A program made the position numbers and the translations under genes. Below are positions 1 to 55,281 of a stretch of DNA of 64,000 nt, one piece after another. A model generated the notes under the pieces. That model ran no database searches. It was not told the origin of the DNA and worked only from the letters and a program-made list of their open reading frames with translations. Position 1 is the stretch's first letter. Each line of letters starts with the position of its first letter. The DNA lies in the IMG/VR virus record IMGVR_UViG_3300031420_000399; one strand, given 5' to 3'. The stretch comes from a virus (lineage: Duplodnaviria; Heunggongvirae; Uroviricota; Caudoviricetes).

Positions 1-91
1 TCTTCGGATCCGTCGCCGCTTTGTCGTTGGGACAGCAGTCAGATGTTAGAGTCGATCTAGCCCACGAGGGACAGAAGAGAGCTGAACACGG

Positions 92-556
92 ATGGCCCAA
101 GAGATGAGTCGAACCGAAAGGCTCCTAGCGAGCCGGAAGGAGCGCCGCAGAAAGCGCTGGAGCAGGCTCCAGGGCGTGCTCATCCTTCTTCTTGTGATCG
201 TCCTTCCTACGGCGGTTTTCGGCGTAGTTCCTTGGGCCATGGGCACCTACGACAGCAGCCATCACCACACCATCGAATGCTCTGTCACCAAGGTCTATGC
301 TGAATCGACTTCGACTCGCTCTGGCAGGGGTGTAGGAGCCTCGGGTCGTCAGATAGTCTTCGCCACGAGCGACTGTGGAGGTCACATCCTTCTCACCAAT
401 GGAGTCTACTGGGACAATGTGAAGGAGCTCGCCGCCTCACTGAAGCCAGGTCGCTACGAGTTCACTGTCGGAGACTCCGAGTGGAAACTCGCTCCGATCT
501 ACAAGGTCTTCAGGGTCTCCCCATCGGCCCAGAAGTACAGCTACCTGGGCCTCTGA
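92..556 (+). CDS. hypothetical membrane-anchored protein (basic N-terminus, one TM helix, beta-rich domain; DUF3592-like architecture)
   Basis: 154-aa ORF; hydrophobic helix LILLLVIVLPTAVFGVV after an RKERRRKR stretch; high GC3. Confidence 0.5.
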   Translation: MAQEMSRTERLLASRKERRRKRWSRLQGVLILLLVIVLPTAVFGVVPWAMGTYDSSHHHTIECSVTKVYAESTSTRSGRGVGASGRQIVFATSDCGGHILLTNGVYWDNVKELAASLKPGRYEFTVGDSEWKLAPIYKVFRVSPSAQKYSYLGL

Positions 557-642
557 TCCAACAGCTATGCGGAGCTGAGACCCTTGGCCTGTGGCTTTGG
601 TAACTTTACCAAGGGCCTCGACACGCCGATCTCCTACTCGAG

Positions 643-672
643 TTGCGCCTTTTGCTGATGCTGTGATAGAGT
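643..672 (+). promoter_or_regulatory. promoter (family): TTGCGC-18-tgaTAGAGT
   Basis: drives the sRNA-like unit; no ORF follows. Confidence 0.5.
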
Positions 673-686
673 GTTCTTGCAGGCAC

Positions 687-747
687 CTTGAGGTGGCTAC
701 TTTTATTTGGAAAACGATCGCTGTCTCGCCTTCCCTGCACTTGAACG
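687..747 (+). repeat. 60-nt direct repeat copy A (CCTTGAGGTGGCTACT...GTCTCGCCTTCCCTG), about 80 percent identical to copy B
   Basis: 15-nt identical core CTTGAGGTGGCTACT at 687-701 and 955-969, then similar tails. Confidence 0.6.
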
Positions 748-790
748 CCCCGGACTCAGACCATCGAGTCCGGGGCTTCTCCCATTTTCG
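748..790 (+). terminator. intrinsic terminator: 10-bp stem CCCCGGACTC/GAGTCCGGGG, loop agaccatc, tail cttctcccatttt
   Basis: ends the sRNA-like unit. Confidence 0.55.
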
Positions 791-807
791 GGTAGCTGGG
801 GTCTCTC

Positions 808-884
808 ATCAACCCAGGAGGGTTGATAGCGGCTAAATCAACCCAGGAGCGTTGATAGTCTGAGATCAATCTCCTAGCATTGAT
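808..884 (+). promoter_or_regulatory. three adjacent imperfect palindromes with ATCAA...TTGAT half-sites (candidate operator cluster)
   Basis: ATCAACCCaggagGGTTGATAG (808-829), ATCAACCCaggagCGTTGATAG (838-859), ATCAATctcctagcATTGAT (865-884); 25-100 nt upstream of promoter B. Confidence 0.5.
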
Positions 885-908
885 TCGGCCGTAGTCGGCG
901 ATTCCCCA

Positions 909-938
909 TTGACAGCTGCCTGCATCCCATGTTAGGGT
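909..938 (+). promoter_or_regulatory. promoter: TTGACA-18-tgtTAGGGT for the TerD-domain gene
   Basis: perfect -35; extended -10. Confidence 0.55.
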
Positions 939-954
939 GGATTCTGTCAGGCCC

Positions 955-1013
955 CTTGAGGTGGCTACTCACTCCTTATTGAACCCGCCGTCTCGCCTTT
1001 CCTGACCTTAGCT
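955..1013 (+). repeat. 60-nt direct repeat copy B forming the 5' leader of the TerD-domain gene
   Basis: lies between promoter B (909-938) and ATG 1040. Confidence 0.6.
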
Positions 1014-1039
1014 TTTTACCCGAAGGGAAACACCACCAC

Positions 1040-3184
1040 ATGGCTACCATTTCAGCCGCCCTCCGTCAGTCCGCTCTCCGTCGCGGCATCCTCGTCGAGA
1101 ACTTCTCCGGGAACAGCCCCGCCAGTGAGGTCGTGCGCTACGCCGCCGTCCTCGAGCTCGCCAACCTGGGCTTCCTCGTGCAGCCCGGTGACCTCAACGG
1201 CTTCTCGGCGGGCGCTTTGAGCTCCGCCATCGACAGCGCCCGCAAGATCATCGGCGCCGATCGGGACATGACCCCGATCTACCCGGGCTTCCCGAAGCAG
1301 GTCGAGGAGCTCTCCACGCTGCAGCTCCTCATGGAGCAGATCCTCCACTACTGGACTGCAGGCGCCTTCCTTCCGAACCACCCCGCAGAGGTCCGCGAGG
1401 GGCTGCCGCTGGAGGACATGCTGCGCAGTGGCCGGAAGCTCCAGCTCCTGTCCGCGGATGTCGCCCTGGAGCGACTCCTCAGCGAGCTCGTCAAGGCTCC
1501 CGTTGCGCTCTCCTCGGATGACCGGGAGCTCCTCACCGAGCTCACCAAGGCGGTCTACGGCGAGAACTTCCACCGGACCATCAGTACCTCTGACCTCGTG
1601 CGCAGCTCCACCAACGGTGAGAACATCCAGGTCTTCGCCGAGGCACTCCGGGATCATGCCAGCACGCTTGTCCACAGCCGGGATGACTACTTCTCTGCGC
1701 TGACCTTCGGTGTCCGCAACAGCGATCACCTCCTGCGGCTGATCCTGTCCTTCTACGGCGCTCCCGCAGCAGACCGCTGGGTCGAGAACTACGAGCTCGC
1801 CGTGGGCACTCTGGCCGACCGGCACTTCCGGGCAGTTCGTTTCTCGAGCGTTCCTCGCTACCAGCGTCAGCTCATCGTGGACGCCCTGGGTAAGCTCACC
1901 GAGGGTTACCGGGCCGACCGGCTCGTGACCCGTCAGAACCTCTGGCGCCGCGTCTTCAAGGGCCTCCACCCCTACGACCTGAAGCTCACGGTTGAGTCGA
2001 AGCGGGCTCTGGACATCGTCCACAGCAACATCGACTACCGGACCCTGAACTCGACCATCGAGCAGGCCCTGGAGGACCGGAAGGTCTCCGAGGCCGTAGA
2101 GCTCCTCGCTGAGCACCAGCCGGGTAATCTCCTCCGGCGCCTCGTGGCCATCCTTCGGCTCACCAAGAAGAAGGCAGACGCCAAGGTCCTCGCGAAGCGA
2201 GTTGCTGAGGTCGGCTCCAGGGCTACGCTCTCCACGCTGATCTCCTCCTACAACGGCGTCCTCGGCGCCAACGATGAGCACGCTCGGGTGAACCGGGTTG
2301 CGGGGCTCAACAACACGATGCTCGATCGAGGTGCCGTCGAGAAGATCGACGCGAACTTCCAGGCTGAGGTCCTCGAGGCTCTGGACCAGGCAATCATCGC
2401 TGCCCTCAAGGCAAAGGGAGCTCCTGTTGCGCCCGTAGGTGTCCTGGGAGACGCATCTGTGCCCCTGGTTCGCCGGGATGCTGCGAGCTCGGATCGAATC
2501 CTCGACCGGGGCGCTGAGCTCGGCCTCGTGGGTGAGGGCGATGTGCTCCGGCTCTTCGGCCACTGGAACAACAACATGGACCAGGGAAGCTACATGGACA
2601 TCGGAGCCGTCGTCCTCGACGAGGACTTCAACGAGATCTCCGTGAGCACCTGGAACTCCTGGAACTACGCCCGGAACTGGAGCACCTACTCCGGCGACAA
2701 GCTGGTCTACCCCGGAGACTCGGCAGCTGAGTTCGTGGATGTGAAGATCGAGGCGCTCAAGCAGAACCTCAAGGGTGCTCGCTGGGTAGCCATGACCGTG
2801 CAGTCCTGGGCCGGTTGGCCCATGGCAGATGTGGACTTCATCGCTGGAGCCATGCTCCGGCAGAAGGCCGGCGATCAGAAGGGTGAGGTCTTTGACGCTC
2901 GCTCCGTGACCACCGCCTTCAAGCCCACCACGAAGTCCACGCAGTCCGTGCCCTTCGCCGTGAACCTGGAGACGGGTAAGATCGTCTGGCTCGACTCTTC
3001 CAACGGTTCCACGGGTTCGGGTAACTCTGCCTCCAACGATGGCACTGTCGGCTCCATCGTCTACGACGAGGCTGCCCGGCCGAAGCTCTCCATGGGGCGC
3101 CTCGCCGAGCTCTGGGCCTCCGCCCACGGTGTCGAGACGGTTCAGGAGCCCGTAGACCGAGACGCAATCCTCGGACTTCTGTAG
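1040..3184 (+). CDS. large protein with C-terminal TerD-like domain (N-terminal 500 aa unassigned)
   Basis: 714-aa ORF; C-terminal block (LFGHWNNN, DIGAVVLDEDFNEI, YSGDKLVYPGDSAAEFVDVKIEAL, ARWVAMTVQSW) follows the TerD motif order; promoter 909-938 upstream. Confidence 0.7.
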   Translation: MATISAALRQSALRRGILVENFSGNSPASEVVRYAAVLELANLGFLVQPGDLNGFSAGALSSAIDSARKIIGADRDMTPIYPGFPKQVEELSTLQLLMEQILHYWTAGAFLPNHPAEVREGLPLEDMLRSGRKLQLLSADVALERLLSELVKAPVALSSDDRELLTELTKAVYGENFHRTISTSDLVRSSTNGENIQVFAEALRDHASTLVHSRDDYFSALTFGVRNSDHLLRLILSFYGAPAADRWVENYELAVGTLADRHFRAVRFSSVPRYQRQLIVDALGKLTEGYRADRLVTRQNLWRRVFKGLHPYDLKLTVESKRALDIVHSNIDYRTLNSTIEQALEDRKVSEAVELLAEHQPGNLLRRLVAILRLTKKKADAKVLAKRVAEVGSRATLSTLISSYNGVLGANDEHARVNRVAGLNNTMLDRGAVEKIDANFQAEVLEALDQAIIAALKAKGAPVAPVGVLGDASVPLVRRDAASSDRILDRGAELGLVGEGDVLRLFGHWNNNMDQGSYMDIGAVVLDEDFNEISVSTWNSWNYARNWSTYSGDKLVYPGDSAAEFVDVKIEALKQNLKGARWVAMTVQSWAGWPMADVDFIAGAMLRQKAGDQKGEVFDARSVTTAFKPTTKSTQSVPFAVNLETGKIVWLDSSNGSTGSGNSASNDGTVGSIVYDEAARPKLSMGRLAELWASAHGVETVQEPVDRDAILGLL

Positions 3185-3188
3185 GATC

Positions 3189-3225
3189 AGGCCGGCGGCA
3201 AACTGAAGTCAGCTGCCGCCGGCCT
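3189..3225 (+). terminator. 12-bp perfect hairpin AGGCCGGCGGCA/TGCCGCCGGCCT (no U-tract) after the TerD-domain gene
   Basis: inverted repeat. Confidence 0.4.
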
Positions 3226-3237
3226 CACAGTCCTACC

Positions 3238-3819
3238 ATGGCCATCACCGAAGACCTAGGGAAAGCTACCACTATGACCGTTCGACAGTCACTGCGCTTC
3301 AGCACCGTTCTCGGGGATTGGTCCGACGATGGCCACGGAAAGACTCGTACGGTCGAGGTCGAGGTCTTCACTGATGACGACTCCGTGGAGCTCACAGCTG
3401 ATCTCATCCAGGAGAACTACGCTGCCAACGCTGCCAGGCTCGGCTTCAGCCTCGGTGCGCTATGGGAGGAATACGAGCAGTCCTCGATCTTCGCAGCGCA
3501 TGCTCAGGCAATTCAGCGGGAGCTCGGCGCGCTCTACTATGGGGACAGCTCCCTCATCGCGAAGCACCCAGATGTGGCTATCTTCAACATCGAAGAGCTC
3601 CCCAAGGGTACGAAGTTCGGCTTCGGTGCATTCCATCTTCAAGAAGGGTGGAACGGCGACTTTGCCCTCGACGAGGAGCTCAATCTGGTGCTCTTCATCA
3701 TCCTGCAGGGAATTGCGAGAGTCGGCTGGAAGAAAGTCGATCCTGCGCCTCTCCTCTTTGGCGGTTACAGCGCTCTCGTGGAGCCCCGTCAACATGTGGG
3801 CTACGGGCTGTTCTACTGA
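3238..3819 (+). CDS. hypothetical protein (193 aa)
   Basis: ORF follows the hairpin at 3189-3225; overlapping alternative-frame ORFs are low-complexity. Confidence 0.55.
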   Translation: MAITEDLGKATTMTVRQSLRFSTVLGDWSDDGHGKTRTVEVEVFTDDDSVELTADLIQENYAANAARLGFSLGALWEEYEQSSIFAAHAQAIQRELGALYYGDSSLIAKHPDVAIFNIEELPKGTKFGFGAFHLQEGWNGDFALDEELNLVLFIILQGIARVGWKKVDPAPLLFGGYSALVEPRQHVGYGLFY

Positions 3820-4178
3820 TGGGCATCACAGAAGAGCAGATTGCTGAGGCCGTCAGAGGCCATGTGCACTACAGCTTCCTAGAGATTGCGAGCAACCTTG
3901 CCACCATTCTCACAGGTATAGTCGCGCTTTTCGCACCTCTAGCGCTGATCATCGGATTCGGCGCCCTCATGGTCTACCTGATTTCACCTCAGAGGGGACT
4001 CCTCCCTCTATTCTTCACCACCCTGATCGGCTCAGCACTACTCTACGGTGTGCTCCTCCTCGGAGCCCTCGGCTCCCTGGGGCTCTGGTGCGGCCTTGGA
4101 CTCTTGGCAGCGAGCTACCCGATCCTCAAGCGCATCGCCCGTCGCCGGGCAGAGAGAAGGATCACCGCTTCTGCATGA
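3819..4178 (+). CDS. small membrane protein (about 119 aa, 3 predicted TM helices)
   Basis: ATG overlaps upstream stop (TGATG); hydrophobic segments LATILTGIVALFAPLALIIGFGALMVYLI and SALLYGVLLLGALGSLGLWCGLGLLAA. Confidence 0.5.
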   Translation: MGITEEQIAEAVRGHVHYSFLEIASNLATILTGIVALFAPLALIIGFGALMVYLISPQRGLLPLFFTTLIGSALLYGVLLLGALGSLGLWCGLGLLAASYPILKRIARRRAERRITASA

Positions 4179-4637: not shown

Positions 4638-5117
4638 ATGAACAGCTTCCAGTACCCCGCCGCAGTGGCAGGCCGCGCAGAGCTCCTCAAGTTCTCCTAT
4701 GTGGCCCTCGCCATCGGTGCAGCTGAGCTCGCCCCCGAGCTCGCGGCCCTGGAGTCCATCCTCGGCGATGACTACGAAGAGCTGACCCGCAACCGACGGC
4801 TTCGGGACGGTGGCTCCGACTTTCACGCCACCATCGTGCTCCCCAAGGAGTTCAGGACGCTCCGCAAGAGCGCATCTGGTGGTCGCATCGAGATCCCTTC
4901 GAAGGAGCTCGAACTGGAGATCCTCGGCATCGGCACCGCAATTAGCGAGGCGTCCCAGACCTGGTTCGCCATCGCCCGCTCTGAGGCCGTTGTTGCCTAC
5001 CGGAAGCGCCTGGGGCTCCCCTCCCACGATCTCCACATCACCCTGGCCTTCGAGGCCGCAGGCGATGTCCATGGTGTCCCCAAGGATGCCAGCACCCTTC
5101 TGACCACCACCCGCTAG
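4638..5117 (+). CDS. hypothetical protein (159 aa)
   Basis: leaderless ATG 6 nt after tgTAAGGT (4626-4631). Confidence 0.6.
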   Translation: MNSFQYPAAVAGRAELLKFSYVALAIGAAELAPELAALESILGDDYEELTRNRRLRDGGSDFHATIVLPKEFRTLRKSASGGRIEIPSKELELEILGIGTAISEASQTWFAIARSEAVVAYRKRLGLPSHDLHITLAFEAAGDVHGVPKDASTLLTTTR

Positions 5118-5502: not shown

Positions 5503-6213
5503 ATGACCAACAAGCGCATCCGCAGCACAAAGCGAACCATCGACAAGCTCGGCGTTGCCTTCGCCTCGATCATGGTGATCGGCCTCGTTCTCAGTGGCTG
5601 TTCCATGGAGAACGGCGGAGACGCCAAGTCCACTGCCACCACCGATGTCGCGGACTCCCAGTCGGTGCTCAAGAAGCTCGAATCTGCTGACATCATCGAG
5701 GCAAAGAAGGCAGTCTTCAGCTTCGGAGACAAGTGGACGATCACTGCTGACGGCGAGGAGATCGGCGAGATCAAGGGTCAGCCGATTTACTCCATCGGTG
5801 ATACCTACTCCCTGTTCTCTCCGGCCGGTAACCTCGTTGCCAGTGAGGCGGAGGGCTTCCGGGTTGTCAACCACAGCGCGGGGCTTTACGACTACAACAA
5901 CAAGAAGCGCGGTGAGATCCAGGAGCAGTTCTCCATGTTCCTCGCTGAGTACAAGATCAAGGACGCCGAGGACAAGACCGTCGGCACGGCGAAGCAGAAG
6001 TTCAGCCTCACCATGAACTTCGACCTCGAGGGCAAGCATGGGGACGCCGAGTACACGATCTCCAAGGCCGCCTTCTCCATGGGTTCCAAGGTCACCATCG
6101 AGGCCCAGAGCAAGGATCGCTCGGTGGATGCTGTGGATGCACTCTGGCTCGCAGTGATCGCCTCTGAGGTAGAGGACGCCAAGAGCGACGACAGCAACAA
6201 GAAAAACCGCTAG
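5503..6213 (+). CDS. lipoprotein (236 aa)
   Basis: signal peptide ending in lipobox LSGC; leaderless ATG 6 nt after tgTAGGAT (5491-5496). Confidence 0.65.
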   Translation: MTNKRIRSTKRTIDKLGVAFASIMVIGLVLSGCSMENGGDAKSTATTDVADSQSVLKKLESADIIEAKKAVFSFGDKWTITADGEEIGEIKGQPIYSIGDTYSLFSPAGNLVASEAEGFRVVNHSAGLYDYNNKKRGEIQEQFSMFLAEYKIKDAEDKTVGTAKQKFSLTMNFDLEGKHGDAEYTISKAAFSMGSKVTIEAQSKDRSVDAVDALWLAVIASEVEDAKSDDSNKKNR

Positions 6214-27936: not shown

Positions 27937-28272
27937 ATGGCCGCTGAGCTCGACGAGTATGCCGATGCCTACTTCCTCTCGAATCACGCTAACCAGCTGC
28001 AGTCCATTCACAGGGAGCTCAAGAGCTTCTCCTGGATCATCAGCCCCCTCATAGCGACAGCAGGTGCGGTCGTGGGCAGTTTCTGTTCGGCAGTACTGCC
28101 GATCGGGGATGATCCAGCTCTGATCGGCGGAGGAGTCGTGCTCGGAGTAGTCGGCGCCTTGGGCTTCAATCTTGATCTGATTCGCCGAGGTAGGAGAGCT
28201 GCTGAGGCTCGAGCTCGCTACGAAGTCCTCGAGGCAGAGCTCTTTCCCGAAACCAAGGAGATCAGCGCATGA
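27937..28272 (+). CDS. small membrane protein (111 aa)
   Basis: in-frame ATG with SD GAGAG; two hydrophobic helices. Confidence 0.5.
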   Translation: MAAELDEYADAYFLSNHANQLQSIHRELKSFSWIISPLIATAGAVVGSFCSAVLPIGDDPALIGGGVVLGVVGALGFNLDLIRRGRRAAEARARYEVLEAELFPETKEISA

Positions 28273-54723: not shown

Positions 54724-55281
54724 TTGACCACCAAGACCGTCACCCTCGATGACATCACGGGCGAGATCATCGACCCGAAGCAGATCAACACCATCGAGCT
54801 CCGTGTGACCTCCGGTCCCTACGCTGGTGCCTCCGTGGAGCTCGACCTGAGCGCCAAGAGCTTCGAGTCGAAGATCATGGAGCTCCTCGACCACGGCGAT
54901 CTCGAGAAGATCCTGGCTGTGCCGAAGCCCGCTGCCGATGATCCGGTGAAGAAGGCTCGCCGGCCGCGCCACAACTACACCTACATCCACGAGGAGATTG
55001 AACCCGAGGACCTCGTTCCGGTGCTCGCCAACCACCGCATCCAGCTGGAGCGCCGCAACAGCGTGGCCATCGATGCTCGGCTCTACGCTTCGGTGATGAG
55101 CTCCCGCTCTTATCAGGTTAGGATCCGCCAGTCCTTCCGGCTGTCCAACATCACCGAGCTCCGTGACCAGCTCAACGCTGTCGCGCTGGATCTTGTCATC
55201 CACAAGACCTTCCGATCGGTCTCCAACGGAAAGGTCCTCGGTGTCTTCGGAGACATCTACGCAGTACCGAACTGGAAGTGA
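54724..55281 (+). CDS. Lsr2-like N-terminal domain protein (185 aa)
   Basis: TTG start with SD AAGGAG; MTTKTVTLDDITGEII...TIELRV...VELDLSAKSF parallels the Lsr2 dimerisation domain (MAKKVTVTLVDD...YEIDLS); basic stretch KKARRPRH. Confidence 0.5.
   Translation: MTTKTVTLDDITGEIIDPKQINTIELRVTSGPYAGASVELDLSAKSFESKIMELLDHGDLEKILAVPKPAADDPVKKARRPRHNYTYIHEEIEPEDLVPVLANHRIQLERRNSVAIDARLYASVMSSRSYQVRIRQSFRLSNITELRDQLNAVALDLVIHKTFRSVSNGKVLGVFGDIYAVPNWK

Follow-up and report, generated by a model that had tools for sequence, protein, structure and literature searches.

Three tandem palindromes upstream of a TerD-like gene in a putative actinobacterial phage element as a candidate operator array with a putative embedded promoter and a probably host-encoded SatD-type binder

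Between the terminator of a small RNA and the promoter of a gene for a TerD-like protein, a phage-like element carries three tandem palindromes, which raises the question of what might bind there and which transcript such binding would control. The locus lies in a stretch of 64,000 nt (hereafter the window; ~60% G+C) that has nearly all of its genes on one strand, encodes mostly unknown proteins, and was taken to belong to an uncultivated actinobacterial phage-like element, its phage nature being putative. Promoter A, as read from the sequence of the + strand (TTGCGC at 643–648 and TG-n-TAGAGT at 664–672), drives a structured, stand-alone small RNA of ~62 nt (leader-RNA unit copy 1, 679–740, + strand). 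This RNA is followed on the same strand by a terminator hairpin with an 11-bp perfect G+C-rich stem (747–776), which is conserved through compensatory changes in the related locus L004. Downstream of the palindromes (808–884), promoter B (TTGACA at 909–914, 18 nt, and TAGGGT at 933–938; + strand, read from the sequence) precedes leader-RNA unit copy 2 (947–1007, + strand), i.e., the 5′ leader of a gene encoding a 714-aa protein (1040–3184, + strand; phrog_33734, TerD-like). The array is separated from this gene by 155 nt, with promoter B and the leader RNA in between, and the two genes flanking it (for a 154-aa membrane-like protein and for the TerD-like protein) are both on the + strand, neither of them encoding a helix-turn-helix (HTH) protein.

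The closest phage relative of the 714-aa protein is found in Mycobacterium phage WXIN (45% identity), distant plasmid homologues carry a TerD family annotation, and an identical protein was found on metagenome contigs of up to 193 kb. Further homologues (P0021, P0040, P0048, and P0099; ~55% identity) reside on metagenome contigs of 670–830 kb, which may stem from a giant phage, a megaplasmid, or an uncultivated chromosome. When 185,579 GTDB species genomes were searched with a profile of the 714-aa family, a single match was confirmed, on a MAG contig without the palindromes, and scans of IMG/VR with the 714-aa protein and with the exact site yielded no matches. Likewise, megablast of window positions 1–4000 against phages returned no match, Rfam contained no family for the region (at the gathering threshold and at E ≤ 10), and a tRNA scan of the region found none. 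Past the TerD-like gene, the genes at 4638–5117 and 5503–6213 include one for a 2H-phosphoesterase-like protein (PF22547, 2H-SAK) and another with a faint LOR-family match; since the synteny of these genes is kept in all close relatives, a conserved multi-gene module under the TerD-gene promoters is suggested.

The palindromes themselves were identified by reading the sequence and by pattern search. Site 1 (ATCAACCCAGGAGGGTTGAT, 808–827), site 2 (ATCAACCCAGGAGCGTTGAT, 837–856), and site 3 (ATCAATCTCCTAGCATTGAT, 865–884) are 20-bp palindromes of the form ATCAAY-N8-RTTGAT, a pattern with three matches against 0.01 expected, and three matches were reached in none of 100 shuffles. Site 1 is perfect, with 8-bp arms (ATCAACCC-AGGA-GGGTTGAT). 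Viewed as 7-N6-7 palindromes with the half-site (A/T)TCAACC, sites 1 and 2 are exact and site 3 reads ATCAATC/GCATTGAT. No sites beyond these three occur in the 64 kb when up to two mismatches are allowed over the 12 arm positions, and a 2-mismatch scan of the 9 kb further upstream of the window found no site of the ATCAAY-N8-RTTGAT type. A search with the looser pattern ATCAA-N(8–16)-TTGAT, of the kind advised in the initial annotation of this DNA, also returned only these three. The tandem palindromes that this annotation reported are present as described, and their distance to promoter B is as claimed (24 nt from the end of site 3 to the TTGACA at 909–914). However, the spacing of 30 nt that it gave measures 29 bp from start to start between sites 1 and 2 and 28 bp between sites 2 and 3, and its description of a triple site in phase did not hold up, since a period of ~2.7 helical turns does not place the sites on one face of the helix.

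The conservation of the array was examined in three related loci (L004, L005, and L006; ~87% identity in the adjacent protein), all of which carry the three sites at the same place and with the same 29/28 spacing. Across the four lineages (i.e., the window and L004–L006), 36 of the 42 arm columns are invariant, versus 7 of 18 centre columns and 5 of 17 columns of the inter-site spacers (29–39%), and 7 of 31 and 8 of 24 columns of the flanking intergenic DNA. Judged from these columns, purifying selection is on the arms only, with the centres and spacers drifting. The AGGAG centre, which had been taken as a shared feature of the sites, is not kept in relatives, with TCCA or TGGA replacing AGGA in L004, and site 1 of this locus shows a symmetric change (GTCAAC...GTTGAC). 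A reading of the AGGAG centres as Shine-Dalgarno sequences was rejected because AGGAG is only 1 nt away from TTG and because L004 has not kept the centre. The flank of the right arm of site 2 (TTGATAG), on the other hand, is identical in all four lineages.

Beyond these relatives, no such palindrome was found in L151, L152, and L007 (60%, 56%, and 49% identity, respectively), in phage WXIN, or in a Mycolicibacterium plasmid, all of which have kept the promoters and leader units; promoter B in particular is kept at all homologous loci, the palindrome-free ones included. Since these distant relatives have the promoters and leader RNA without the palindromes, the array is an insertion specific to this clade, placed downstream of the small-RNA terminator and ahead of promoter B. 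In L004, the interval between site 3 and promoter B contains an additional pair of related palindromes (CACAACCTCCCTGGTTGTA at 2807–2825 and TACAACCAGGGAGGTTGTG at 2835–2853) that are of a 7-N5-7 type with ACAACC as the half-site, are 28 bp apart, and jointly form one perfect 19-nt inverted repeat. This pair may serve a paralogous regulator as its operator. In L152 (56% identity), an AT-rich palindrome of another kind (AAAACTTTTCCGAAAAGTTTT, ~2303–2323) lies just 5′ of the single promoter, and the lineages seem to differ in the operator that is inserted at one and the same position.

The leader-RNA unit is a separate feature of the locus. A structured unit of ~62 nt is situated upstream of every examined homologue of the 714-aa TerD-like gene, with a 5-bp P1 stem, an 8-bp P2 stem, and conserved internal-loop bases (GGC.CC and CUUYCC). 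Copies are also located at L001 3602–3977, L151 2242–2475, L152 2370–2431, L007 1592–1773, and L002 3830–3891; the copy number is one or two, with five tandem copies in phage WXIN. RNAalifold of 16 copies gave 13 pairs, of which 9 show compensatory changes, while a covariance model of the unit found no further copies in 144 kb and Rfam gave no match. In the window, copy 1 has its own promoter and terminator and copy 2 is the mRNA leader, which makes the unit a candidate new cis-regulatory RNA plus decoy small RNA, one that may be more novel than the palindromes.

Within the array, a consensus scan revealed the only sigma-70-type promoter match of positions 400–1200, i.e., the putative embedded promoter P_C on the + strand (852–880; TTGATA at 852–857, 17 nt, and TAGCAT at 875–880). 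Its –35 hexamer is the right arm of site 2 plus one base (a likeness that partly follows from the half-site itself, TTGAT), and its –10 hexamer corresponds to positions 11–16 of site 3, where sites 1 and 2 read GAGGGT and GAGCGT, respectively. Sites 2 and 3 together form a promoter-like element that the initial annotation had missed, with a predicted start near 887. The combination of TTGATA with a TAGCAT –10 hexamer holds in the window, L005, and L006; in L004, the hexamer is degraded (TAGTCA).

Clues to the binder came from a metagenome scan with the site consensus ATCAACCCNNNNGGGTTGAT, which matched at least 136 loci. Among the matches listed, 134 were single, chance-level sites and two were tandem loci (L076 and L054, on 72%-GC bacterial contigs), with the second site 29 bp (L076) or 28 bp (L054) away. 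Both pairs are located directly 5′ of homologous genes for proteins of 200–227 aa that have a weak match to SatD (PF16264) and a C-terminal HTH. This SatD-like family is chromosomal and belongs to Micrococcales (e.g., Arthrobacter, Paenarthrobacter, and Curtobacterium); the annotations of its members vary (hypothetical, MarR-family, DNA-binding, or SatD-family protein), and one member scores above the Pfam SatD threshold. A PDB sequence search with the SatD-like profile gave nothing significant, a search of the literature on SatD-family regulators gave nothing relevant, and no description appears to exist of either the regulator family or its operator.

The link between the arrays and the SatD-like genes was set as a prediction and then checked on independently fetched homologues. 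In Curtobacterium flaccumfaciens (L145–L147), two sites of the ATCAACC-N6-GGTTGAT type, 29 bp apart, end 12 nt before the start codon, and Curtobacterium sp. RRHDQ66 (L148) has two sites 29 bp apart in the same arrangement. In Antribacter (L156), the array consists of three TCAAGG-type sites with a period of 28 bp, the SatD-type loci L149 and L150 have a single site each, and Arthrobacter-type loci carry a GCTACC-N4-GGTAGC palindrome within the promoter. L054 shares the 28-bp period of L156; in L145–L148 and L076, the sites recur after 29 bp. The half-site varies with the lineage of the regulator under a common architecture, and the putative recognition helix of the SatD-like protein differs along with it. 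Since half-site and recognition helix co-vary with the layout kept, the SatD-like protein is likely to bind these sites and to regulate its own gene, this being the main argument for its role. Nevertheless, another factor could bind both the window and the chromosomal sites, since the link to the SatD-like protein is one of position and co-variation. The genes for the SatD-like HTH proteins follow different housekeeping genes depending on the lineage, namely one for an acyl-CoA oxidase in Curtobacterium (L145 1–1440), aroB or aroQ in L054 (928–2637) and Antribacter (L156 1–324), and an M50 peptidase gene beside dxr in L149 (118–1461). Downstream of the Curtobacterium gene (L145 2136–2962) lie a 183-aa gene of unknown function and a convergent CsrA-family gene.

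The promoter register of the window recurs at these chromosomal loci. TANNNT occupies positions 11–16 of the last site (TAGGGT, TATGGT, TACGGT, or TATCCT) at all six distinct SatD-type bacterial loci and is absent from these positions in every upstream site there. Where the sites are in tandem, a –35-like TTGAYN in the right arm of the site before it lies 17–18 nt upstream of this –10 hexamer, and the start codon comes within 6–20 nt of the latter. Since the –35 hexamer is in a right arm and the –10 hexamer in the next centre, the spacer equals the period minus 11, and a period of 28 or 29 bp yields the optimal spacer of 17 or 18 nt. This promoter geometry explains the conserved period without helical phasing.

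Because the same sites, with the same spacing and a built-in promoter, precede genes for SatD-family HTH proteins, the sites in the window most likely bind a regulator. The core of the initial proposal, i.e., a multi-site operator for a dimeric protein, is supported by the conservation of the arms and by the identical chromosomal arrays, whereas helical phasing and the regulators that it named are not. We favor, at a probability of roughly 55%, the reading that the array is an operator with its own sigma-A-type promoter, bound by a SatD-type protein supplied by the host, and that it provides an additional, regulator-gated input. According to this reading, a dimeric C-terminal-HTH regulator of the SatD family (PF16264-related) would recognize ATCAACC-N6-GGTTGAT at the three sites and, once bound, would occlude the embedded promoter, whose –35 hexamer is in the right arm of site 2 and whose –10 hexamer is at the centre of site 3. 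Once the regulator is released, additional transcripts would start near 887, run past promoter B and the leader, and extend into the TerD-like gene, so that the array would act as an extra regulator-gated input upstream of an ancestral ensemble of promoter B, leader RNA, and TerD-like gene. The regulator would be supplied by the host and be of the type that is presumed to be autoregulated by the same array in Curtobacterium-like Micrococcales. Repression is the direction of regulation that this geometry points to. The effect on the TerD-like gene could be small, since no site overlaps promoter B, 60 nt downstream. More tentatively, and with less than even odds in our estimation, a signal sensed by the SatD-type protein would gate the expression, from a mobile element, of a TerD-like gene with a structured leader RNA and a decoy small RNA, and the SatD-HTH family would gain from the sites its first operator consensus together with its first regulon members.

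For the binder, a SatD-type HTH protein is the probable identity and the host the probable source. By tblastn and hmmsearch, no SatD-like gene was found in the window, the 9 kb upstream of it, L003–L006, or L157, nor was a SatD-like protein present among 50,697 phage genomes; this lack in 73 kb of the element and in the phage genomes is what makes a host-encoded binder likely. A weak hint at the identity of the host may be drawn from a cation-efflux protein of the window, of which the nearest named cellular homologue is from Agrococcus (Microbacteriaceae; 43% identity). Neighbouring sample accessions offer the only other hint. Tandem pairs of TCAACC-N6-GGTTGA at exactly 29 bp were also encountered on four unrelated IMG/VR viral contigs of 53–69% G+C (L159 11168–11216, L173 315–363, L219 1378–1426, and L230 1031–1079), against an estimated chance expectation of ~0.005 for such full pairs among 76 pattern matches. 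The pair on L219 is situated between a terminator and a gene with an NrdH-type glutaredoxin-like product (as judged by eye), and the right arm of the last site on L173 reads TTGACG, followed by 17 nt and TATCAT. No common gene and no common regulator gene was found on these four contigs and the window, and the recurrence of the same pair on viral contigs that are unrelated in gene content fits a trans-acting, widely available regulator.

An operator for a regulator encoded by the element itself, either the protein at 28269 or a gene beyond the 73 kb seen, would be the more conventional expectation, as phage operators are usually bound by phage repressors and the region covered amounts to about a third of the contig (73 kb of at least 193 kb). 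The initial annotation had put forward two such candidates, i.e., the HTH protein at 28269 and a protein at 54724 with an N-terminus that is Lsr2-like by eye. Both were rejected as binders: the former has a marginal, sub-threshold HTH_3 match, the latter has no Pfam or PHROG match, and there is no similar site near either gene. Moreover, no site-like sequence occurs elsewhere in the window, no regulator gene adjoins the array, no SatD-like protein is encoded in the region covered, and the same array is present in unrelated viral contigs and in chromosomes that have no local gene in common, all of which renders an element-encoded binder unlikely.

The sites could instead serve as upstream activator sites for promoter B, with their centres at about –71, –99, and –128 relative to a start at ~946. 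All three are indeed upstream of the –35 hexamer of promoter B without overlapping it, and Class-I-type activators bind at comparable distances. However, ~45 extra bases lie between site 3 and promoter B in L004, so the distance between the sites and this promoter is not constrained. Furthermore, the chromosomal arrays overlap the core promoter, which is a geometry of repression, and activation of promoter B would leave the TANNNT rule of the last site unexplained. We regard activator sites as quite improbable.

Very improbable is a function as RNA hairpins in read-through from promoter A, where they would affect stability, processing, or back-up termination. The hairpin of site 1 is stable (–11.5 kcal/mol) and the region 740–950 folds better than its shuffles (z = –4.6), but sites 2 and 3 form weak hairpins (–4.8 and –3.9 kcal/mol; z = –1.6 for site 3). 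When pairing and invariance were analyzed in 18 distinct sites of bacteria and of the element family, both-sided changes in five cells spoke for pairing; against it, 11% of the cells are unpaired and uncompensated, at outer as well as inner positions, and positions 3–5 and 16–18 are invariant in sequence rather than covarying. The few symmetric arm changes fit DNA-site and RNA-pairing readings alike, and the overall pattern of conservation is more in line with two half-sites being recognized by their sequence than with pairing being under selection. In addition, no U-tract follows any of the sites, a terminator scan was negative, and the palindromes do not qualify as intrinsic terminators (by a G+C-rich stem with a U-tract, or by covarying pairing); the sites lie past a strong terminator, and the chromosomal copies are within promoters. 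A non-transcriptional role of the DNA (in partition, as replication iterons, or in recombination) is hardly credible either: clustered repeats of fixed period that are unique in the region covered are typical of centromere-like or origin sites, but no par, rep, or integrase gene adjoins the array, the same arrays are found immediately 5′ of the start codons of chromosomal regulators, and close relatives of the module lack the array.

If the operator reading is correct, it would give a concrete operator to an uncharacterized, widespread actinobacterial family of SatD-type HTH proteins, i.e., arrays of ATCAACC-N6-GGTTGAT with a 28–29-bp period and a promoter built in. It would also mean that mobile elements have copied an operator cassette that ties an accessory module to the regulatory state of the host, and it would supply a clue to the host range of an otherwise unassignable metagenomic element. 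Since operator arrays and borrowed host operators are already well known, the gain would be a new instance rather than a new mechanism.

Among known systems, the OR1–OR3 operators of lambda-type phages likewise comprise three tandem imperfect palindromes that overlie a promoter and vary in the quality of their arms, and by analogy the variation in arms from site to site suggests a graded or cooperative occupancy by dimers. Their period is, however, ~23–24 bp versus 28–29 bp in the window, and they have repressor and cro genes adjacent and usually divergent, whereas the array in the window has neither, serves a single promoter direction, and probably has a binder that is not encoded nearby. The short repressor-binding stoperators of cluster A mycobacteriophages resemble the sites in the window in their size and in their occurrence in an actinobacterial phage, but they lack symmetry, depend on orientation, and occur scattered in tens of copies, whereas the sites described here are palindromic and clustered at one locus in 73 kb. 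Closer to the proposed arrangement are sites for host factors on phages (LexA boxes in temperate phages, and PhoB and NtcA sites in cyanophages), where a host operator precedes an accessory gene and couples its expression to host physiology; here, the regulator would be of an uncharacterized family (SatD-type HTH) and is presumed to be supplied by the host. The SatD-HTH promoter-operator arrays of Micrococcales chromosomes, a class defined in this analysis for which no description was found in the literature, differ from the array in the window in being located 5′ of a SatD-like gene, which they directly abut, instead of 5′ of a TerD-like gene that is on a mobile element and set off from the array by a second promoter and a leader RNA. 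These chromosomal arrays nevertheless share with it the half-site ATCAACC-N6-GGTTGAT, the 28–29-bp period, and the promoter register, and a three-site version also exists among them, in Antribacter.
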